From a virus (lineage: Duplodnaviria; Caudoviricetes), in the IMG/VR virus record IMGVR_UViG_3300026493_000002: a stretch of 64,000 nt of DNA, one strand, 5' to 3'. This document shows, piece by piece, positions 15,493-26,383 of the stretch. How positions within the stretch are numbered: position 1 is the first letter of the stretch; each line of letters starts with the position of its first letter. The notes beneath the pieces are model-generated. The model was given only the letters and a program-made list of their open reading frames with translations. It was not told the DNA's origin and ran no database searches. A program made the position numbers and the translations under genes.

Positions 15493-15678
15493 TCACCATT
15501 TTCCAGCCGGGCAATTGCCTGCGCCGAGTGCGGCCTTCATGTGGATGAAGCACCCACACAGACGACACTTCTCCAGCTGGAGGTTCAATGCCTTGGACAA
15601 CAGGTAGTTCTCGCAACTGCGGCAGGCTTCTACTCGGGCCTGTGCGGCCTCGGAGAGCTTGGGAAGATCAAGGTTCAT
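15493..15678 (-). CDS. Small Cys-rich zinc-binding protein (DUF6171-like)
   Basis: R..C..C...C..CGC...K...CP..KW pattern. Confidence 0.7.
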   Translation of the reverse strand: MNLDLPKLSEAAQARVEACRSCENYLLSKALNLQLEKCRLCGCFIHMKAALGAGNCPAGKW

Positions 15679-15732: not shown

Positions 15733-16230
15733 TTAGAACCCCTGCTTGCAGTCAGCGGCCTTGACGCCCATGAACACCACGTGCAGTGGGTTGGGCTTCA
15801 ACGAACGGTTGACCTTTTCCACGCGCTCGTCGAAATCATCCGGCACGGTCTCCAGCTTACCCAGAGTGACGTGCGGGGAGAACGAGGCGAAGGAATGCTC
15901 GGCGCCGGCACGGGCCAGAGTGGCATGTGCCTGAATCAGAGACATGGAGTGGACGTCGGCAACCACGTAGATCTGGTCGTCGTGTCCCTTCCAATGCTGC
16001 ACACTCGGGATCAGTGCGTTGTGCACCGGGCGAATGATTGGCATGCTGTCCGGCACGGCGTCGCGCGAGTACATGAGGGTGCAGTGCAGTTCTTCCAGGT
16101 CGGCTTCGGGCAGACCCAGATCCTCACACAGCTGGTTGAGAAGCAGGCCGAATTCGGCAGGCAGCTTTGCGTGGACATACAAGCCGGCGTTCTTGGTGTA
16201 CTCGGAGGTGTCGAAGCTGGGCGAGTTCAT
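15733..16230 (-). CDS. acb1: 2H phosphodiesterase, T4 gp57B/Acb1 anti-CBASS nuclease family
   Basis: Two HxT motifs in Acb1-like context: LHCTLMYSR and FSPHVTLG; GLYV N-terminus; 165 aa from MNSPSF. Confidence 0.8.
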   Translation of the reverse strand: MNSPSFDTSEYTKNAGLYVHAKLPAEFGLLLNQLCEDLGLPEADLEELHCTLMYSRDAVPDSMPIIRPVHNALIPSVQHWKGHDDQIYVVADVHSMSLIQAHATLARAGAEHSFASFSPHVTLGKLETVPDDFDERVEKVNRSLKPNPLHVVFMGVKAADCKQGF

Positions 16231-16238
16231 GGCTGACC

Positions 16239-16619
16239 TCAGCGGATGACGTACACGTAGGACACCAGGCCTTCGAGACGACGCAGCACCTCGTCCGTAT
16301 CCTGCTGGCCAAGCCCATCGACGATGGCCATGTAGGACGTCGGGATGCGCGACTCGGTGAGGCTGGCAGGACTGGCGACCTGGATATCGGGTCGCGGATC
16401 CACACCTTCGATGGTTGCCCACACGTTGGTGCGAATCTCTTCGGCCTCGGCGATGCTGCTGGCGACGACAAGCAACTTGGTGTCGTGCTTGGGATCCAGC
16501 AGCGCTTGGTGTGGTTGGCTCAGGATCATTGCGCAGCCGGCTACCACCAACGTGGTCTTGCCTGCTCGCATTTCACCCGTAACGTTCACGACATTGGTTT
16601 CGGTGATAGCTTCCATCAT
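16239..16619 (-). CDS. Minimal P-loop NTPase-like domain
   Basis: Walker A GEMRAGKTT, LLVVASS, QVASPASL, Walker B AIVDG. Confidence 0.7.
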   Translation of the reverse strand: MMEAITETNVVNVTGEMRAGKTTLVVAGCAMILSQPHQALLDPKHDTKLLVVASSIAEAEEIRTNVWATIEGVDPRPDIQVASPASLTESRIPTSYMAIVDGLGQQDTDEVLRRLEGLVSYVYVIR

Positions 16620-17035
16620 GGGGTCTCGGTAACAAGGACGGTGACCCGTCGCCGAAGCGCGGGCATACGGTTAACGCACAACCATTCCTTCGGAAGTCCG
16701 TCCTTGAGTCCATCAATCAGGACGTAATCGTACTTGTGGTCCACGTCGGGAACGTTGAGGCGGAGATTGTCAGCGACAGCCACGTGGCGGTCAAGGACAT
16801 AGCAGCCGTGATCTTCATTCCCAGCACAGACACCAAGTGATTCCGAGAGGTCGGAGACTTTGCGCATCAGAACACGACACGCATGGTCGGTCGGGCCAAC
16901 AACAAGCACACGCAACTTGGTGCCGAACATTTCATCCCGCTTGCGCAGAGACTCACGCACGAAATGCACCAAGCTCACGGTAGCGGCGGTCGTCTTCCCA
17001 CAGGAGTCCAGACCGCTGATAATAAGGTGGTTCAT
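16616..17035 (-). CDS. Minimal P-loop NTPase-like domain
   Basis: Walker A GLDSCGKTT, motif Ia-like VLVVGPT, Walker B VLIDG; 139 aa from MNHLII. Confidence 0.7.
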   Translation of the reverse strand: MNHLIISGLDSCGKTTAATVSLVHFVRESLRKRDEMFGTKLRVLVVGPTDHACRVLMRKVSDLSESLGVCAGNEDHGCYVLDRHVAVADNLRLNVPDVDHKYDYVLIDGLKDGLPKEWLCVNRMPALRRRVTVLVTETP

Positions 17036-17085: not shown

Positions 17086-19059
17086 TTAGAGTTTGTACTT
17101 CTTCTTGAAGGACACCAGGTCGTAGACAGGGATACCCAACGACTCGGCCTTGGAGAGCTTGCTGCTGGACTTGCCCGGCACTGCAATCAGGATCGTGGTC
17201 TTGGCGTTCACGCCGCTGGCAATCGAGCCGCCGTTGGCAACAATCGCCTTCTCCAGTTCCTTGTCGCGCACACCAGTGAAGCACACCGCTTGGCCAGTCA
17301 TCTTCTTGCCGACGACCTTGACCTTTGCTGGCATCAGCGGCTTGATCTTGGAGAGACGCAGCCACTTGGTGAACTTGTGGAAGCCAGCGGCGAAGATCGC
17401 AGCAGTCTTCTCTTGGAAGCCTTCGATGCCGACGACCTTGGCCTTGATCTGATTGGGGGACAGCTTCTCCCACGTTGTCAGCAGGTTGGGATACGCATTG
17501 ATGATGGCCTCGAAACGCTTGCTGCCGAAGCCTGCACCGAAGTGACCACTGCCTGCCATGAGCAGATGCAGCGGAGCTTCCTTGCACTTGGCGCGAATCG
17601 AAGCCGCCAGCTTCTCTGCACTGCGACGCTTGAAGCCCGGGATCTCCAGGAAGTCCTCAGCATCCGCACGCAGGATCTTGATGATCGACGTGTAGCCGGC
17701 CTCGGTCAGCTTCTGCACCACACCGAGCTTGACACCCTCGACGTCCAGCTTCACGAAGAAGTCGGTGATGCGCTTGTCACGCACCAGGTCGGTCTTGGTG
17801 TCCATCATGATGTACACCTTGCCGGAATCCCAGGTGTAGTCGATACCCTTGGGCAGGCCCGGAGCCTTTGCGGCCTTGACGACCTCGACCACATGCGGGA
17901 TCACGTCGCCACTACGGACGATCTTGATGATGGCGCCCTTACCCAGCGGCTTCTCCACCAGCTTGACGTTGTTGCGACGGGCCTTGCCGACTTCCTTGCT
18001 GCGGTAACCGTGCACGATGAAGAAGGCGTTGTGACCCGAAATGTTCGTGACCGTGACACCTGCCAGAGGTGTGGGCGGGATGACGATGACGGGTTGCAGC
18101 TTGCCGTGCTTGGTCTCTTCCCAGTCGATGCGCTCGATCTTCACCGTTGCGCTGTCGTCCTCACCCTGATCCTTGAAGGCGAAGGCGTAGGACGGACTGT
18201 GCGTACCAGCCGGCGGCCGCTTGTTGATCGAATTGTTCTCGATCACCAGACCGTCGATTGGACGCGGAGACTTCGCACGCGCTTCCTTGAACAGGCGTTG
18301 CAGCTTCGGAATGTCGATGGTATCGGTGACACGCCACGGGGCGGTCATGAAGCCCATCATATCCAGAACCTGGAACGCGCGCTGCGGAGTCATACGCGGG
18401 CTGATGACCTCGTAGGCAAGCACGTGGGCCTTCTTGAGGGCCGAGTGGTCACCACGAATGCGGTTCATCATACCCGCGACGAGGTTGCGACTGTTGGCAA
18501 AGCCCTCAGAGGCAAACGACTTCTTGAACACCGCATCGGTCATCGAAATCTCGGCGCGGATGGTCATGCCCTCCTTGGGCGCGAGCTTCGGCACGTCGAG
18601 ATACGGGATCAAATGCGAGACGTCCTGACCGATGGTGCCGTCGCCGCGCGTGTACACCGACGACAACTCCCAGCCCTTCTTACCCTTGCCTGCGTAGACA
18701 AGTTCCAGGGACGATCCGTCCTCCTTGTTGGAGATAACGTACGGTCCCGGATACTTGGCAGTCCAGCGCGCGAATTCCTTCGGCATGTCCGGCTTGATCT
18801 TGGACAGACTGAACAGCGGATAAGGCAACTTCACCTTCTTGCGCCCAACCTTGGAGCTACCGACCTTCTTCAACAGCGGATGTTTCGGATCACGACTGCG
18901 CAGTTCGTCCTCCAGCTGGTCGTACTTGGCGTCGGTCAAGCTGAGCTTGCGGCCGGCGTAGTACAGGTCCTTGGCCTTCTGGATGGCGCGCTCCAGGATG
19001 GTCGTGGACAGCTGGCGAATCTGGGCCTTGCTGTAGGTATTCAGTTCGGAGAGCTTCAT
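17086..19059 (-). CDS. ligA: NAD-dependent DNA ligase
   Basis: YY...D..YD domain Ia, KEDG adenylation motif, TRGDG, SGDVIP, HhH region and C-terminal BRCT; start MKLSEL. Confidence 0.95.
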   Translation of the reverse strand: MKLSELNTYSKAQIRQLSTTILERAIQKAKDLYYAGRKLSLTDAKYDQLEDELRSRDPKHPLLKKVGSSKVGRKKVKLPYPLFSLSKIKPDMPKEFARWTAKYPGPYVISNKEDGSSLELVYAGKGKKGWELSSVYTRGDGTIGQDVSHLIPYLDVPKLAPKEGMTIRAEISMTDAVFKKSFASEGFANSRNLVAGMMNRIRGDHSALKKAHVLAYEVISPRMTPQRAFQVLDMMGFMTAPWRVTDTIDIPKLQRLFKEARAKSPRPIDGLVIENNSINKRPPAGTHSPSYAFAFKDQGEDDSATVKIERIDWEETKHGKLQPVIVIPPTPLAGVTVTNISGHNAFFIVHGYRSKEVGKARRNNVKLVEKPLGKGAIIKIVRSGDVIPHVVEVVKAAKAPGLPKGIDYTWDSGKVYIMMDTKTDLVRDKRITDFFVKLDVEGVKLGVVQKLTEAGYTSIIKILRADAEDFLEIPGFKRRSAEKLAASIRAKCKEAPLHLLMAGSGHFGAGFGSKRFEAIINAYPNLLTTWEKLSPNQIKAKVVGIEGFQEKTAAIFAAGFHKFTKWLRLSKIKPLMPAKVKVVGKKMTGQAVCFTGVRDKELEKAIVANGGSIASGVNAKTTILIAVPGKSSSKLSKAESLGIPVYDLVSFKKKYKL

Positions 19060-19075
19060 GGTGTGGGCACTGTGC

Positions 19076-19612
19076 TTAATGGTGGAAGTCGCGGAAGTCG
19101 AGTCCGTCGTCGTCATCGCGGAAGGTGTCCTCGTCGAGGTCGAACTCCTCACGCTTCTTCTTGGGTTTCAACAGCTGGGCTTTATCCTGCCTGCTCGGAC
19201 TCTTTACAGAGGACGGCTTAGCAGCCTTGCGGATCTTGTCCAGACGTTCGAGCTTCACGTCCAGCTTGGTCGGGCGCTTCGGAGCAGCGGGCTCCTTGAT
19301 TACGACCTTGATCGGCTTCGGCGGCTTGGCAGGCTTCTCCACGGCGGAGAACTCAACCGGATCACGGTGGCGACGGCTGCTATCGAGCAGTTCACCACCG
19401 TCTTCCACTTTGAGGAAGTAGCGAATGTCAGGACGGGAGGGAACAACCACGCGGTCAACGCGGTTGTTCAGGTTGAACAGTCCGAACAGGTCACCGTTCT
19501 TCAACGTCAACGTCTGGCCCTTGGTATCCTTGATGACGAACGGCTTCTTCCCTGTGTACTTGTACCACAGATGTTTCTCGGCCTTGATGGGCCGTGCGGC
19601 TTTGGCTTCCAT
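19076..19612 (-). CDS. Hypothetical basic protein
   Basis: 178-aa ORF in operon. Confidence 0.7.
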   Translation of the reverse strand: MEAKAARPIKAEKHLWYKYTGKKPFVIKDTKGQTLTLKNGDLFGLFNLNNRVDRVVVPSRPDIRYFLKVEDGGELLDSSRRHRDPVEFSAVEKPAKPPKPIKVVIKEPAAPKRPTKLDVKLERLDKIRKAAKPSSVKSPSRQDKAQLLKPKKKREEFDLDEDTFRDDDDGLDFRDFHH

Positions 19613-19629: not shown

Positions 19630-21201
19630 TTACTTGGGCATGAATGCGTTGAGCATATCGTACAGTGCATAGCGGCCACCCTTCGACTGCCTCATCCGCT
19701 TGTTGTCTTTGCGATCCTGCGCGATGGAGATCTGGCGCTGAGCCTCGTTACGCCACGTCTCGGTACTGACCGTCTTCGCATCCTGCTCGGAGGGCTTGTA
19801 GATGATGCTAACCGGAACATTCATCACGGTCATCAGGCCGAGCTTTCGCGGATCATAGGTCAGGACCGCCCAGCGAGTGCGCGGGCCCTTACCGTTCTGG
19901 ATCAGCAGGATGCCGGGGATCGTGCGATCCGGCTTACGGCTGTCAACCCACGAGACTGCCATGAGCGAGTGCAGCTGGTAGGGAGACAGCGGCTCCAGTT
20001 TGGACTTGGTGCTGCGGATCGTCTCCTTCTTCTGCTCCACGCGCTGCTTCGTGGCTTCGTCCATGAAGGCCGCGTTGTCGTACTTGCTGAAACGTGCAGG
20101 CGTCAGGCCGACGTTGACCATCCAGCGACGCCAGTTCGGACCATGACCGCCTTCGGCCTTGAGTGCAGCGCCGCCGATACGGTCCAGTTCGTACACAGCC
20201 TGATGGCACATTTCATGGACAATCGTGGTGACAACCAACGGCTCTTTGCCGCTGCCGAACAGGTTCGGACTGATCTGCATGAGACGTTTGCCATAGCTGT
20301 ACTGACCACGCAGACGGAACTTCTCGACGCTGACAGCCTTGAGCAGGTGCAGATGCGGCCGATGTAGCTTACCACCGAAGAGGCGCTTGTTCGCGTTGTC
20401 GTACACCCGTTCAATGTAGGCAAGCATTGCACTGCGCTTACCCTTGGCCTTGGCGAACATGGACGGATCGCCTACCAGCTTGGTCAGCTGCACGTCCTGC
20501 GGATGGATCGAGGACAGGTCCGGCTCGTTCTTCTGCGGCAGCTTCGGCTCGGGTTCAATCTGGATGGTGAGCTTCTTGACCTTCGTGGAAGGCTTCGGCG
20601 CACGCAACGGCTTGAACGGTTCGGTCGGTGGCTCGGGATCAACCGCGCGCTCAACCTTGCGACGCAGTTTGGTCGGCGCAGGGCGCACAGTCTGATTCTC
20701 GGGCCAATCGTTTTCGGTTTCGAGGCCAGGACGACGGCGGCCCGTGGGCTTCGTCTTCGCAGGCTTGTCGACCTTCACCTTCTCGACCTTGGTCTTGCGT
20801 ACGGTCTTCTCAACCTTCGGAGCCTTGGCGGGCTTCTTGGTCTTGACTACCTTCTCGGCCTTCTTGCTACCACCCTTCGTCTTGGACTTGAGGGCTTTCT
20901 TCTTTTCGGTGAACTTCTCGATCTTGCCCGTGAGCAAGTCGATCTTCCCCTGCTGCAGGTCGATCGCGGCTTGTGCTTTCTTGGCGGCAGCCTTGACTGC
21001 GGCCGGCACTCGTCCGGACTTCTGTGCCTTCTTCAATTCTGCAAGGGCGGGCTTACCCTTGTTCTGAGCGACCTTGAGCTTGTCCTTACGGATAGCGATA
21101 CGCTCTTTGAAGTAGGCAATACGGTCGTCGATGGCCTCAATGCGTTCGGCAGACGACAGGCTGACGAAGCCCATGTCGCTCACGCGCAGGTGAAGTTTCA
21201 T
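19630..21201 (-). CDS. SprT-like zinc metalloprotease with long Lys/Pro-rich N-terminal region
   Basis: TIVHEMCH...HGPNW SprT signature; start MKLHLR. Confidence 0.85.
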   Translation of the reverse strand: MKLHLRVSDMGFVSLSSAERIEAIDDRIAYFKERIAIRKDKLKVAQNKGKPALAELKKAQKSGRVPAAVKAAAKKAQAAIDLQQGKIDLLTGKIEKFTEKKKALKSKTKGGSKKAEKVVKTKKPAKAPKVEKTVRKTKVEKVKVDKPAKTKPTGRRRPGLETENDWPENQTVRPAPTKLRRKVERAVDPEPPTEPFKPLRAPKPSTKVKKLTIQIEPEPKLPQKNEPDLSSIHPQDVQLTKLVGDPSMFAKAKGKRSAMLAYIERVYDNANKRLFGGKLHRPHLHLLKAVSVEKFRLRGQYSYGKRLMQISPNLFGSGKEPLVVTTIVHEMCHQAVYELDRIGGAALKAEGGHGPNWRRWMVNVGLTPARFSKYDNAAFMDEATKQRVEQKKETIRSTKSKLEPLSPYQLHSLMAVSWVDSRKPDRTIPGILLIQNGKGPRTRWAVLTYDPRKLGLMTVMNVPVSIIYKPSEQDAKTVSTETWRNEAQRQISIAQDRKDNKRMRQSKGGRYALYDMLNAFMPK

Positions 21202-21205
21202 GGGC

Positions 21206-21907
21206 TTATCCCTTCTTACGCAGGCGACGAACCCGCTTGGCGCCCTTGAAGCCAGCAACCAACGAACTGGCCGTCGCGGGCATGAAGCCCGGCGGGAATC
21301 CGTTGTTGTCGTCCGACTTCATGAACAGCTGCTTGAGGCTGGTGCGGCTGAGCGCGTTGCGGACGAACCGCAGGAAGTCGATCTTGGTCATCTTGTCAGC
21401 GCGCGGGACCTCTTCGATCTTGTCCCAGTAGCCCTTGAACATGTTGAAGACCGTGTTGTTGCTGTTCATGTACTTGGTGCCGAAACGCTTGAATGCGAGA
21501 TCGATCACCACGTTGCCGACGCGGACCACGAAGTGGATCAGGTCCTTTGCGATCAGCTGACGGCCGAACTCGTTCATGGCGTTGGTCAGGACCGGCGAGC
21601 AGTCGACCAGTTCACCCTTGAAGCCGTGACAGACCAGCAGCTGGCTATCGAAGCCATTGATGGTCAGATGACGGAACAGGGTTTCAGCCAGCATCGCCGC
21701 ATTCTCTTCGGCGACGATCACGTTGGTCTGGGCCTGCTTGGCCTTCTGGCTGCTGTTGAGGAAGTCAGTCACCGCTGCGTACAGGGTGATGCCGTTGTTG
21801 CCACGGCCCAGGCCACCGCTGATGCTCTCCAGCTCACCCAGCGAGGTGGCAATGACAGCATCCGACTCGGAACTGAGCGGGATTTGGATCTTGGAAATCT
21901 TGGACAC
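21206..21907 (-). CDS. Hypothetical virion protein, possible transglutaminase/papain-like fold
   Basis: IHFVVRVGNVVIDLAFKRF resembles the His/Asp strands of that fold; 233 aa. Confidence 0.5.
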   Translation of the reverse strand: MSKISKIQIPLSSESDAVIATSLGELESISGGLGRGNNGITLYAAVTDFLNSSQKAKQAQTNVIVAEENAAMLAETLFRHLTINGFDSQLLVCHGFKGELVDCSPVLTNAMNEFGRQLIAKDLIHFVVRVGNVVIDLAFKRFGTKYMNSNNTVFNMFKGYWDKIEEVPRADKMTKIDFLRFVRNALSRTSLKQLFMKSDDNNGFPPGFMPATASSLVAGFKGAKRVRRLRKKG

Positions 21908-21938: not shown

Positions 21939-23831
21939 TTAACCTCGGGGCTTGATGGATACGGTCTGATTGGACATGCGCTTGCGCACGTTGGCTTCCT
22001 TCATGGCGCGAGCGATGCGACGATTGATCTTCTCGTTCGCTGCCTTCTGGCCGGTGAGCAGACTGCGCTTGCCGGTCGCACTGACGTTGTAGAGTTCACC
22101 GGTGTCACCGAACTCGCGGTTCAGCAGTGCAGGCTTACCACGCACCGACTGAGTGCTGCTGCGAGTCTTCTGCAACGGCGGCGGGATCAGGAACGAACGG
22201 GCTTCCGCCGACATATCGTCATCACCGCTCTCGTCGTCCTTCGGCAGCAGGGCGTCGATCTTCTGCTTGTACTCCTGCAGGCGCTTGCGCGTTGCAAGGT
22301 CGTCGTCCTGCTGCTTGAGCAGTTCGTCGAGGTTCAAGCCACCGGCTGCGGCCAGCACGCGGATCGGGACGGGCACGCCCTTCTCGGTCATCGACTGGAG
22401 CATGTCCATGTAAGCGGTGTCGCCCTCGGGCTTCAACTGCTTGGACCACGACACGCTCGGGATCAGCAGGCGGCTGCCGTCGTTAAGGGTGTACAGGGCT
22501 TCTTCCGGAGCCAGGCTGTCCATCAGACCATCGGTGCGGATGATCTTGCCCTTGTGGTTCACGGTGATGCCGTTAATCATCGACACCAGCGGGAACAACT
22601 TCTCGTAGAAGAACTTCCGGGTCATCATTTCGCGGTATGCACGGAGCATATCCACGAACACGGTCATGCTGTTGTCGTTGACGTTGTAGTTCGCGTCGCC
22701 AGACAGGAACGCTTCCGAAATCGACAGCGCGCGCAGCTTCTGCGGCAGTACGGAGTCGGAGAAGTCGGTCACCTTCCAGAAGTCGCCACCCTGACGAATC
22801 TCCTCCACGCCGACACCGGCACGGGTTGCAACGATGGCACCGAGCGGATCGGTATCAGCGTTGAGGAACATGTCCACCATGAACTCCATGTCCTGCGGAC
22901 TCGGAATCCAGTTGTCACCGTCACCCAGCGTCAGGTGCATGATGCCGCGCTGGCGTCGTGCAGACTCGACAAGGGTACCACGGAACAGGTTCTTTTCGAT
23001 CAGGTACAGCGGCAGCAGACGACGGTAGTAGCTGACGCCCATGTCCGTATCGGCGAACGTCTTGCGCGGGATGTACGTGGTCGTCATCGGGTCGAGCTCC
23101 ACAGAGCCAGCCTTGATCTTGTCGAACACGTCCGCACCCACCAGCTTCATCAAACGCTCAAGGCGCTTGGGGTTCATTTCCAGCACGGCCTTGTGCTGCT
23201 CACTGAACGTAGCGGTGATGACCGGTTCCTGCGAGTAGAACGGCAGGGTCTGGATGCCGAGGTTCTCCGGGGCGTAGGGCATCACGTCCACGAAGACCTT
23301 CTTGTCGCGGTTGTAGAGCATCGAGTGGCAGTGCAGGCCCAGCACCAGCTGGTCAACCGCCATCTCGGGAATCAAGGTCTTGCAACCCAGACGCTCCACG
23401 TTCTCGTTGTAGATCGAGAGGATCTTGTCATCCTCCAGGCCGCCGAGCGAGAAGTCGCCGAACGGCAGCATGGACATGAGGTCGACAGCACTACCGCCGA
23501 CGGGATCGTTGTAGTAAATGTCGCGGTACAGCGAGTACAGGATGCGGTAGTTGTTCGGCATCAGACCGACAAGCATCGGGTCCGTGTCGATGGTGACCGG
23601 CATGCTGCCCATCTGGGTGTTCGGCATCGCCATGTTGATGCCGCTCTCGGACGTCATGACGTCCGACACCTTGCCATCGGTGACCTTGGACTCGGCCTTC
23701 TTCGAGTTACGCACCTTGCTGTCCATTCCCAGATGGGAACCGTCAGTGGACGTCGGCAATGCAGCTGCCGTCGCAACGTTCGCACCTGCCGGGCCGGGCC
23801 TGGTGTACTTGCTTTTCTTGATACTCAGCAT
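21939..23831 (-). CDS. Portal protein
   Basis: 630 aa from MLSIKK; just downstream of terL; helical N-terminal LYRDIYYNDPVGGSAVDL block recalled from jumbo-phage portals. Confidence 0.75.
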   Translation of the reverse strand: MLSIKKSKYTRPGPAGANVATAAALPTSTDGSHLGMDSKVRNSKKAESKVTDGKVSDVMTSESGINMAMPNTQMGSMPVTIDTDPMLVGLMPNNYRILYSLYRDIYYNDPVGGSAVDLMSMLPFGDFSLGGLEDDKILSIYNENVERLGCKTLIPEMAVDQLVLGLHCHSMLYNRDKKVFVDVMPYAPENLGIQTLPFYSQEPVITATFSEQHKAVLEMNPKRLERLMKLVGADVFDKIKAGSVELDPMTTTYIPRKTFADTDMGVSYYRRLLPLYLIEKNLFRGTLVESARRQRGIMHLTLGDGDNWIPSPQDMEFMVDMFLNADTDPLGAIVATRAGVGVEEIRQGGDFWKVTDFSDSVLPQKLRALSISEAFLSGDANYNVNDNSMTVFVDMLRAYREMMTRKFFYEKLFPLVSMINGITVNHKGKIIRTDGLMDSLAPEEALYTLNDGSRLLIPSVSWSKQLKPEGDTAYMDMLQSMTEKGVPVPIRVLAAAGGLNLDELLKQQDDDLATRKRLQEYKQKIDALLPKDDESGDDDMSAEARSFLIPPPLQKTRSSTQSVRGKPALLNREFGDTGELYNVSATGKRSLLTGQKAANEKINRRIARAMKEANVRKRMSNQTVSIKPRG

Positions 23832-23910
23832 AACGGGAGTCTCCATCGAACCCGAGCATATGCCGCAGAGGGTCGATCTTTTGGATTGTAGTCTCTGCGG
23901 CAAATGCCGA

Positions 23911-24132
23911 TCAGTTCTTCTGCGGGGTGGAGACGCGGCAGGTCGTGCAGAAGAAGACCGTGTCGCCGTTGCCGATCGTGCCGGTGGCCATGGAGGTCTT
24001 GCACTTCGGGCACTCGCCGACATTCTCGTTGTAGATTGCGGCGGTGGCTTCCATCGCAGGCTGGTCAGCGTTGGCGACTACAACCTGTTCCGGCTCCGCT
24101 TGCAGCGGGTTGAAAATGGGCTTGGTACTCAT
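23911..24132 (-). CDS. Small zinc-ribbon protein
   Basis: CPKC...FCTTC; GGGAG RBS. Confidence 0.75.
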   Translation of the reverse strand: MSTKPIFNPLQAEPEQVVVANADQPAMEATAAIYNENVGECPKCKTSMATGTIGNGDTVFFCTTCRVSTPQKN

Positions 24133-24193: not shown

Positions 24194-26383
24194 TCAACCT
24201 CTCGATTTGCGCACGCCGAGCGAGGTTCCAGCAGATGCAGCACCGCCGCCTCCGCCACCACCGGAGTATCCCTTGGAGACGCCCATCTGGGAAATGTCGA
24301 TGCCCCGATTGGTCTCCAGTCGATCCTTCTCCCAGAGCTCCTGGTTGTCTTCATCGAGGAGCATTCGCACGCACAGCATGGAGGCACGCACCATGTCGTC
24401 CGTCAGCTGATCACCCTTGATGATCTGGCTGCCAGTGTCCTGCACAGTCAGCATCTGGAGATAGAAGTGGCCGATGGCGTCGTTCTTGAACACCGACGGA
24501 TAGTTCGACTGGTCGTAGGTGGTAATCTCGTCCAGCTCGCGCTTCGGATTGGGCAGCAGGATGCGCTTGTCTTCGAGGTAGTCCTTGAACAGTCGCATAT
24601 CGGCGTACTTGAGGCTGTACTGCCGAGTCTGGACCTCGTGGTCTTCCTCAATGTCGGAGAGGATCTTGATGCTGTTCCAGCGGTCGGCTGCCACCAGCTG
24701 CACGTTACGCGCATCCAGCATCGGCACGATCACGCTCTTGTAGATGCGCGAGAAGTTCAGCGGCACGCCCGGTAGAGGCATGACCTCCATCACGGCGTCG
24801 ATCACTGGGAACTTGTGATCCGCCAGATGGCCGATAGCCATTGCGAAGCTGTTGTTGACGTAACCCGCATCGAGCGCAAGGCAGGAGGGCTTACCGGTAC
24901 GACGCGCCTTCTGGATGGTAGCGAAGCGCATCATGTCCTTGGTCTTCTTGCTGCGCTTCTCCTGATGCTGGAGAATCACGGCGTTGGGCTTATCACCGAT
25001 AGCACCGGTGACGATACCCGCAGACAGGAACTGGTTGGACGACAACGGAGGCTGGGCACCGTAATCTCGCATGGCGCCGATCGGATCGTTCTTGAACTCG
25101 TTGACGATGACCGGGTTGTCACGCAGCACACCGGGGTTCATTTCCCACGTGGGGCGGATCAGGCCCAAGATGACGCGCGAACCTTGAGACTTGCGCACCA
25201 GCTCCATGATCTTGTCTCGTACCGACGACGGGCTGGACACGTTGATGAAGTAGCCGGTGGGGATATCGGTGAAGCCCTTGGACCACAGGTTGTCAGCAGC
25301 AGCGCGGACGGTCAGCAGCGAACGTTCGAGTGCCTGATAGACCTGTGTTGCGTCCATCTTGACCTTACCGCTGTCGGCACTGTTGTCGAACCAACCTAGT
25401 TCGTCGATTGAACTCAGGAAGCGAGTACGACCACGCAGGGTTCGCTTATCGGGACCTGCCGGGTACATGAGCAGGCGACGGTGGCGATACATGACGAAGG
25501 TGTCGTTGAGCTTGTAGAGCTCCTCGCCGGTCCTCGCCGTGTAGTCATCCAGCATCGAGTGGTACTCTTGGAACCACGGACTCGCCAGGATGTTGCCGTA
25601 GAACGGATCCCATAGCGTGTCCTTCGCCTGCGCATAGGTCAGTGCGACGAACGTACCGTGCAGTGTATTCGACGGCAGCAGGCCGTAGACCTCGTTCGGC
25701 TTCTGGAGCTTCAACATGCGGTGCGTGATGTACGCCGATAGCATCGCAACCACTGCGGACTTACCCGAACGCTGACCTGCCGAAATCGCCAGTTCGTAGT
25801 ACAGATTGATCCGACCGCGCATGTACGCCTTCTGCTGGCTGCGCTTACAGTGCGGGCACTTACCGTGCACCAACGGAACGATCTTGCTCTGGACGTGATC
25901 CAGGGTATCGCCCACACCGTAGTTGTCGAAGTAGTCCTTGTCCGAGCAGTGTATGCACCACTCGCCGAACAGTCGCAACCCGATCAGGGCCTGCGAGGCG
26001 TACGGCTTCTGATTCAGCAGCTTGGGATTGAGGCAGAATTCCAAGAAGTTGTCGGCGAGCGCGAAGTCGCCGTCGTTGATCTTGATATCCGGACTGACGA
26101 TGGACTTGGAACTGATCGCCTTCTTCAACACTTCCTGAATGTCGAAGGTGTCGATGGTGCCAGGAACGACCATCGGCAGACTATTGCCACCGGGTTCCGC
26201 CAGAACGTCCGGCATCGGAGTCTCGATGGCATCGAACAGACGACGCATACCATCGAGGCCACCATCCTTGCCTCGCTTGAAACGACCACAGCTGTAGATT
26301 ACGGACTTATGCGGGTCCTTGCACTGCAGGTACAATGCACAGGACATGCAGTTCTTCAACGTACTAGATCGGACCTGTAGCAT
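24194..26383 (-). CDS. terL: Terminase large subunit
   Basis: AGQRSGKS Walker A, IDELGW Walker B, VSSP coupling motif, C-terminal RNase H acidic residues (LDAG, TDD). Confidence 0.9.
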   Translation of the reverse strand: MLQVRSSTLKNCMSCALYLQCKDPHKSVIYSCGRFKRGKDGGLDGMRRLFDAIETPMPDVLAEPGGNSLPMVVPGTIDTFDIQEVLKKAISSKSIVSPDIKINDGDFALADNFLEFCLNPKLLNQKPYASQALIGLRLFGEWCIHCSDKDYFDNYGVGDTLDHVQSKIVPLVHGKCPHCKRSQQKAYMRGRINLYYELAISAGQRSGKSAVVAMLSAYITHRMLKLQKPNEVYGLLPSNTLHGTFVALTYAQAKDTLWDPFYGNILASPWFQEYHSMLDDYTARTGEELYKLNDTFVMYRHRRLLMYPAGPDKRTLRGRTRFLSSIDELGWFDNSADSGKVKMDATQVYQALERSLLTVRAAADNLWSKGFTDIPTGYFINVSSPSSVRDKIMELVRKSQGSRVILGLIRPTWEMNPGVLRDNPVIVNEFKNDPIGAMRDYGAQPPLSSNQFLSAGIVTGAIGDKPNAVILQHQEKRSKKTKDMMRFATIQKARRTGKPSCLALDAGYVNNSFAMAIGHLADHKFPVIDAVMEVMPLPGVPLNFSRIYKSVIVPMLDARNVQLVAADRWNSIKILSDIEEDHEVQTRQYSLKYADMRLFKDYLEDKRILLPNPKRELDEITTYDQSNYPSVFKNDAIGHFYLQMLTVQDTGSQIIKGDQLTDDMVRASMLCVRMLLDEDNQELWEKDRLETNRGIDISQMGVSKGYSGGGGGGGAASAGTSLGVRKSRG

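Follow-up and report, generated by a model that had tools for sequence, protein, structure and literature searches.

Phage anti-defense genes cluster, and in T4 the gene encoding Acb1 adjoins the anti-restriction gene ipI, its product acting late in infection (PMC9117128). In T4-type loci the acb1 gene (57B) is found amid small accessory genes, as it is in the locus described here. In Vibrio phage KVP40 (L018:1578-2947), which is T4-like, a P-loop dNMP kinase, which shares only the P-loop with the protein termed A in this work, is encoded by gene 1, two genes upstream of 57B, and in Achromobacter phage Motura (L019:1478-6064) a 1528-aa SNF2 helicase is encoded directly upstream of an Acb1-like gene and downstream of SprT. 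The Motura helicase occupies the same relative position as A and its neighbor B, yet it is unrelated to either of them; derivation of A and B as remnants of a helicase of this type was ruled out by hhalign (probability <1%).

In SF1/SF2 helicases and terminase ATPases the Glu adjacent to the Walker B motif is the catalytic carboxylate, and every change of this residue was lethal in lambda terminase (PMC6379665). The window, which refers here to the whole stretch of 64,000 nucleotides of Caudoviricetes DNA that was analyzed, encodes directly upstream of an acb1 gene two small proteins, A and B, with P-loop motifs and without this Glu. An earlier note on the sequence described them as coupled genes, each encoding one helicase/terminase-type domain without a second motor domain, and proposed that they are nucleotide-binding pseudo-enzymes acting as terminase mimics or nucleotide sponges in a small anti-defense cassette. 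The evidence presented below indicates that A and B form a new and very small orphan family, whose members are helicase-type RecA1 domains encoded on their own and devoid of this Glu.

The RecA1 domains of SF2 helicases (ASCC3, Brr2, Hel308, DEAD-box) resemble A and B in the order of secondary structure elements, motif I (GxGKT), the motif Ia-like strand VLVVGPT and a Ib-like region. In addition, the Walker B Asp is retained, the segment SESLG..HG of A can be aligned with LEPLG..TG of ASCC3, and A closes with a strand that ends in T-E-T at the position of motif III (SAT). On the other hand, motif II in A/B is DG, DD or DV instead of DExH/DEAD, and the Q motif, the RecA2 domain and the accessory domain are absent; no helicase comes close to the small size of A and B (126–142 aa), which thus cannot be helicases. 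The ATPase domain of the large terminase TerL (T4 gp17, P74-26, D6E, Sf6 gp2) has a similar core fold (Z 8.5–9.6) and is likewise phage-encoded, but A and B lack the catalytic Glu, the nuclease domain and sequence similarity to any TerL, and this phage has a separate full-length TerL besides them. A single RecA-like P-loop domain is also found in 125–185-aa phage ORFs of BFVD (Bacillus SP-15, Gordonia and Mycobacterium phages), and ResIII/DEAD-only clusters of the ESM Atlas (~130–150 aa) are similar in size and have a single P-loop domain as well; these small helicase-N or “AAA-ATPase” ORFs and clusters differ from A and B in that no sequence relationship is detectable. To our knowledge, none of them has been characterized or linked to Acb1.

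Genes A and B and Their Linkage to Acb1

The ORFs of 139 and 126 aa were confirmed on the minus strand, where every gene of this section of the window is encoded, and they are coupled by an ATGA overlap that joins the stop codon of A to the start codon of B (Table 1). A is preceded by the ribosome-binding site GGGGA and B depends on the overlap. All the motifs quoted in the earlier note were found in both proteins: the Walker A motifs of A (GLDSCGKT) and B (GEMRAGKT) satisfy the consensus GxxxxGK[ST], the motif Ia-like strands are VLVVGPT in A (residues 43–49) and LLVVASS in B, and both Walker B motifs end in DG. The C-terminus of A is VLVTETP.

Table 1. Features of the region encoding A, B and Acb1 in the window, and gene orders in the contexts recovered.
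Feature	Position	Strand	Remarks
Gene A	17035..16616	minus	139 aa; predicted stand-alone SF2-helicase-like RecA1 P-loop domain; conserved family member
Gene B	16619..16239	minus	126 aa; diverged tandem paralogue of A
Walker A of A	16988..17014	minus	GLDSCGKTT, residues 8–16
Walker B of A	16709..16723	minus	VLIDG, residues 105–109; Asp kept, Gly instead of catalytic Glu
Walker A of B	16551..16577	minus	GEMRAGKTT, residues 15–23; canonical in the window, degenerate in orthologues
Walker B of B	16314..16328	minus	AIVDG, residues 98–102
Acb1 gene	15733..16230	minus	165 aa; 2H phosphoesterase, anti-CBASS family; last of the trio
Cys-rich ORF	15493–15678	minus	61 aa; DUF6171 below cut-off (E 6.5e-5), phrog_13558 E 4.3e-11
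Stem-loop	15699..15729	minus	13 bp, three bases past the Acb1 stop, then UUUCG; -26 kcal/mol, z -2.8
Stem-loop	17055..17078	minus	between ligase stop and A start; no U-tract; -20.8 kcal/mol, z -2.3
NAD ligase ORF	17086–19152	minus	688 aa from GTG at 19152; sister-contig calls use ATG 19059 (657 aa)
KMPT-N domain protein and SprT-like metalloprotease	19076–19612, 19630–21258	minus	between portal and ligase
Portal	24023..21939	minus	
TerL	26383..24194	minus	729 aa; no Pfam match at E 0.1; phrog_17415 match only from residue 206
Gene order, window and L001 clade			ligase, A, B, Acb1, small ORFs, TopoIB
Gene order, L008, L015, L016 clade			A, B, Acb1, small ORF, TopoIB
Gene order, L009, L010 clade			ligase, A, Acb1, small ORF, TopoIB
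Gene order, L012 clade			ligase, A, Acb1, small ORF, TopoIB
Gene order, L011 (short contig)			A, Acb1

Orthologues on other contigs and the ratio of non-synonymous to synonymous changes evidence that A and B are real genes. In a related phage (L001) both are encoded in the same order, with 76% (A) and 52% (B) identity to the proteins of the window, and the dN/dS values between the two phages were 0.14 for A, 0.42 for B, 0.25 for Acb1 and 0.38 for the type IB topoisomerase (TopoIB); A is thus under purifying selection. Nevertheless, the divergence of A is much more rapid than that of either TopoIB or Acb1: in the same genome pairs A is 31–38% identical vs 54–65% for TopoIB. The GC3 of A is also lower than that of the neighboring genes.

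The acb1 gene starts eight bases downstream of B. Its product matches Pfam PF23474 (E 6.9e-15, 55.5 bits vs a curated cut-off of 27) and phrog_755 (E 7.8e-22), and the HxT motifs (H49/T51 and H120/T122) are invariant across relatives, PaBG, and KVP40 57B, which on sequence grounds identifies it as a bona fide member of the Acb1 family. Upstream of A lies an NAD-dependent DNA ligase with a BRCT domain, and acb1 is followed by the 61-aa Cys-rich ORF and TopoIB. The wider region is a head and packaging module (TerL, portal, SprT, prohead protease), A and B being located ~7 kb downstream of terL and portal on the same strand. The SprT-like metalloprotease of the window has a long Lys/Pro-rich N-terminal region, and SprT is also encoded in the equivalent neighborhood of PaBG and Motura. 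The closest cultured relatives, based on TopoIB (~30% identity), are jumbo phages, among them PaBG, Lu11, and phiRSL1; the recorded contig of the virus studied here is 233 kb long.

In all the contexts recovered, A, or A followed by B, is encoded immediately 5′ of acb1, with overlaps of 1–14 nt or gaps of 8–11 nt. The gene orders indicate that B is present only in the first two clades of Table 1; in the contexts without B (L009, L010, L012, and L011) A abuts acb1 directly, sometimes with a 14-nt overlap. The small ORFs 3′ of acb1, like B, vary in presence between clades, and since distant relatives show a ~300-nt gap or no called gene after acb1 this spot appears to be variable. The location directly upstream of acb1 asserted in the earlier note was found in each of these contexts; however, the contexts are only partly independent, because the ligase–TopoIB block is wholly syntenic within a single phage clade, and adjacency to acb1 counts as weak evidence of shared function. 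In PaBG, moreover, the Acb1-like gene is located elsewhere and its upstream gene is unrelated to A and has no P-loop.

Two predicted stem-loops border the run of genes (Table 1). The hairpin behind acb1 may represent a weak terminator-like end of the A–B–acb1 run, and the stem between the ligase and A, which L001 and L002 share, may be a processing site.

A and B Are Paralogues of an Orphan Family

A profile search of 1.84 billion representatives with no restriction on length retrieved only five credible relatives of A, all of 136–142 aa, and no credible fused or longer form; a match to a 1780-aa protein (E 7.9e-5) was taken as spurious as only 30-residue stretches aligned. The A family comprises six diverged lineages, all of them in uncultured PaBG-like jumbo phages. 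No significant family was found for A or B in Pfam, PHROGs, NCBIfam or PADLOC, including the terminase families of Pfam and PHROGs. Searches of 50,697 phage records by blastn and tblastn with A, B, P0006, and P0008 returned only a chance match (E 0.8), and IMG/VR scans with A, B, and TopoIB as queries gave no matches. A profile search of the whole PaBG genome, a weak blank as it had no positive control, detected no homologue of A, and literature searches yielded no publication that deals with the A/B family or with a P-loop protein as partner of Acb1.

Comparison of A with B by hhalign (probability 95%, E 3.6e-8, 106 columns) evidenced that they are paralogues, and an HMM of A run against the ORFs of the window matched B (E 1.7e-4) and no further paralogue. 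Together with the restriction of B to two clades, this relationship indicates that A is the ancestral, conserved gene and that B most probably arose as a lineage-specific tandem duplicate, an origin that is new relative to the earlier reading of the sequence. One of the B-like proteins, P0010, carries a false C-terminus (LSLIHI-stop) produced by a Nextera adapter that ends its contig (L008:961-988); the true protein continues like P0014.

Fold and Nearest Domain Type

The AlphaFold2 model of A, built from six sequences, reached a pLDDT of 89.2 and a pTM of 0.85. In an exhaustive structural comparison it matched DEAD/DEAH and other SF2 RecA1 domains, the SF1 helicase HelD and TerL ATPase domains with Z scores of 9–10.6, the alignments spanning from the P-loop to the motif III/C-motif strand. 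Among the terminases, T4 gp17, D6E, and P74-26 scored 9.6, 9.5, and 9.3, respectively, and PhiV-1 TerL in its complex with Avs3 (8dgc) scored 8.8. Foldseek searches of PDB and BFVD as well as Atlas shape and feature searches concur with a helicase/TerL-type fold, the nearest Atlas shapes being TerL ATPase fragments (TM 0.63–0.70). The helicase and TerL scores differ by less than one Z unit, so that a decision between the two is not possible from the fold alone. B was modeled poorly by AlphaFold2 (pLDDT 67.5) and a fold search with this model retrieved only generic alpha/beta matches, and for this reason the fold of B rests on its paralogy with A and on an Atlas model. The helicase/terminase-type domain claimed for both proteins was thus borne out directly for A, by structure prediction and fold searches, and only indirectly for B.

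The sequence profiles discriminate further. The profile of A matched ASCC3, a Ski2-like helicase, at E 0.0012 over 74 residues that cover motifs I, Ia, and Ib, and other SF2 helicases more weakly; the invariant E65..G68 of A (SESLG) aligned with LEPLG/LESLG of ASCC3 and a Brr2-like helicase. Conversely, hhalign of A against the phage’s own TerL gave a probability of 0.3%, which ruled out that A is a copy of that ATPase domain. The alignment to ASCC3 and the lack of similarity to the resident TerL are suggestive of A being nearest to the RecA1 domain of Ski2/DExH helicases, not to TerL. Based on these weak E-values and the predicted structure, A is read, suggestively, as the relic of an SF2 RecA1 domain.

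Catalytic State

The family is defined by only about a dozen sequences, and motif states were read from twelve A and nine B sequences. D108 of A is invariant and is followed by G, D or V but never by E, G being found in the clades that carry B and D or V in the others; in B, D101 and the triplet DGL are invariant. Within the Walker A motif of A, G13, T15, and T16 are invariant and K14 is replaced (by Arg) only in P0008, a variant seen on one contig; the motif is canonical in five of the six A lineages. Residue 137 of A, at the motif III position where the post-Walker B strand ends, is Glu in 10 of the 12 sequences. In one B lineage the P-loop is GSGRTT, with Lys changed to Arg, in four independent variants (P0014, P0019, P0020, and P0021), one of which occurs on 14 contigs, and in another B lineage four variants (P0013 and P0022–P0024) have lost the first Gly of the Walker A motif and gained a one-residue insertion.

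A second RecA domain (motifs IV–VI, arginine fingers) was found neither fused nor adjacent to A or B, in agreement with the earlier note: both proteins end at the motif III strand, their flanks being occupied by the ligase and Acb1. B itself, judged by its paralogy with A, is a RecA1-type duplicate and not the RecA2 domain. Since the catalytic Glu and a second motor domain with arginine fingers are both missing, A and B cannot work as a helicase or translocase. In addition, an enzyme that relies on ATP turnover would not tolerate the P-loop changes described above, which lends support to the idea of pseudo-enzymes, most clearly in the case of B. The pseudo-enzyme claim gains support from the absence of the Glu in every member, the absence of RecA2 and the P-loop decay of B, but is tempered by the mostly canonical P-loop that A retains. 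A pseudo-enzyme that acts by binding only is plausible. As five of the six A lineages have a canonical P-loop and E137 is mostly conserved, A likely binds a nucleotide, and with the invariant Walker B Asp also considered, some residual NTPase or switch activity of A may persist.

Possible Roles of A and B

The preferred explanation, to which a probability of about 0.4 is assigned, is that A and B are RecA1 relics of an SF2 helicase that act by binding and belong to the counter-defense or host-interaction class. Each of the tandem paralogues would derive from an SF2 RecA1 domain closest to the Ski2/DExH type and would keep the phosphate-binding loop and the Mg-binding Asp of Walker B. With the catalytic Glu and the motor half that carries the arginine fingers lost, they would do no helicase or translocase work and most likely bind rather than turn over their ligands. 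A probably still binds an adenine nucleotide; B, the duplicate limited to two clades, would be losing its P-loop; and A and/or B would bind a protein or nucleic-acid partner. A modeled A+B complex scored 0.25 vs a mark of 0.32 in a prediction run with no controls, a result that counts neither way on binding. Both proteins are probably fast-evolving accessory factors co-made with Acb1 from one late-region transcript, counter-defense or host interaction being the most likely class of role. The fast divergence and low GC3 of A, the variable presence of B and of the small ORFs and the linkage to Acb1 fit an accessory, host-facing locus. The genes that flank the trio on both sides (NAD ligase, TopoIB, and SprT), however, are DNA-metabolism genes within a head/packaging module, contexts that would suit other roles of A and B equally well. 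A more specific version, in which A (with or without B) is a new counter-defense protein, a dead RecA1 domain beside Acb1 that occupies an immune sensor or effector or poisons a helicase-based defense complex, is considered rather improbable; a sensor or effector of this kind would recognize such ATPase domains or their nucleotide state.

Among the alternatives that retain catalysis, A, alone or together with B, could be an active, unconventional NTPase or a nucleotide-dependent switch serving the NAD ligase, TopoIB, and SprT, for example by loading or regulating DNA enzymes at nicks, with the catalytic base provided by the motif III Glu or by a partner subunit. The canonical Walker A of most A lineages, the invariant Walker B Asp, the prevalence of Glu at position 137, the DNA-metabolism genes at the flanks and the low dN/dS of A speak in its favor. 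Still, this reading is unlikely given the catalytic role of the missing Glu in SF1/SF2 and TerL ATPases, the absence of a RecA2 domain or an arginine finger, the Lys to Arg change tolerated in P0008 and throughout one B lineage and the divergence of A, which by far outpaces that of the DNA enzymes proposed to be served by it. An even smaller chance, the least of those weighed here, is given to A being a small kinase- or SIMIBI-type P-loop protein, such as a 5′-OH polynucleotide kinase, which, with the ligase and the 2H phosphoesterase as partners, would heal and seal ends much as Trl1 or Pnkp do. A Walker B motif with no Glu behind it is normal for P-loop proteins of these classes, and the gene order ligase, P-loop protein, 2H enzyme is reminiscent of tRNA ligase. 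The combined A+B profile weakly matched the NG domain of SRP Ffh from the P-loop to Walker B (E 0.003), and the polynucleotide kinase Clp1 appeared in the fold search (Z 8.8) and in the sequence search (E 0.94). Nevertheless, the profile of A alone favors SF2 helicases and does not retrieve Ffh; Clp1 and PhoH2 are the only other kinds of P-loop proteins among the top 50 fold matches, where helicases and terminases dominate. Adenylate-kinase-type chains are absent from these 50 matches, which still leaves room for that family. No guanine-specificity, lid, G4 or deviant Walker A motif was visible by eye in the alignments, and the putative partners are an Acb1-family enzyme and an NAD-dependent DNA ligase with BRCT. 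As for A being a reduced thymidylate or dNMP kinase, hhalign with the PaBG thymidylate kinase (Tmk) and the KVP40 dNMP kinase (gp1) aligned only 16–19 residues of the P-loop, and the DRH triplet of A in the window is not conserved in the family; this candidate was considered unlikely.

The role envisaged in the earlier note, that A and B mimic the TerL ATPase as decoys for TerL-sensing Avs proteins or sponge up a nucleotide signal and thereby complement Acb1, draws on the fold searches, in which TerL ATPase domains, that of the Avs3 complex included, rank among the top matches and TerL ATPase fragments are the nearest Atlas shapes, and on the position of the genes downstream of terL and portal on the same strand. 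Helicase RecA1 domains, though, score equally high or higher, within one Z unit, the sole signal at the sequence level is to SF2 helicases, and neither similarity to the resident TerL nor a nuclease domain is found. The decay of the P-loop counts against a sponge, at least for B, and known nucleotide sponges are not P-loop proteins. The decoy or sponge role is considered very unlikely. A similarly low probability is given to A and B being head-assembly or DNA-packaging accessory proteins. In favor of this role, A and B have the genes for TerL, portal, and prohead protease around them, all on the same strand; yet the core components of structural and packaging modules are usually conserved across related genera, and PaBG has no homologue of A, B is dispensable in three clades, and the rapid divergence and low GC3 of A are unlike those of the neighboring structural genes. 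Binding-only relics of a helicase in the counter-defense or host-interaction class remain the reading preferred for A and B.

Concluding Remarks

The present value of this orphan family is as a hypothesis. Should A and B prove to be helicase relics that only bind and that work together with Acb1, the anti-defense repertoire of phages would gain a class of pseudo-enzymes, and there would be a way into the question of what uncultured jumbo phages of the PaBG type have to escape in the late stage of infection. Regardless of their role, A and B represent a clean, small case of pseudo-enzyme evolution, in which a motor was cut to its first half, lost the catalytic Glu and was duplicated, and one of the copies is now losing its P-loop.
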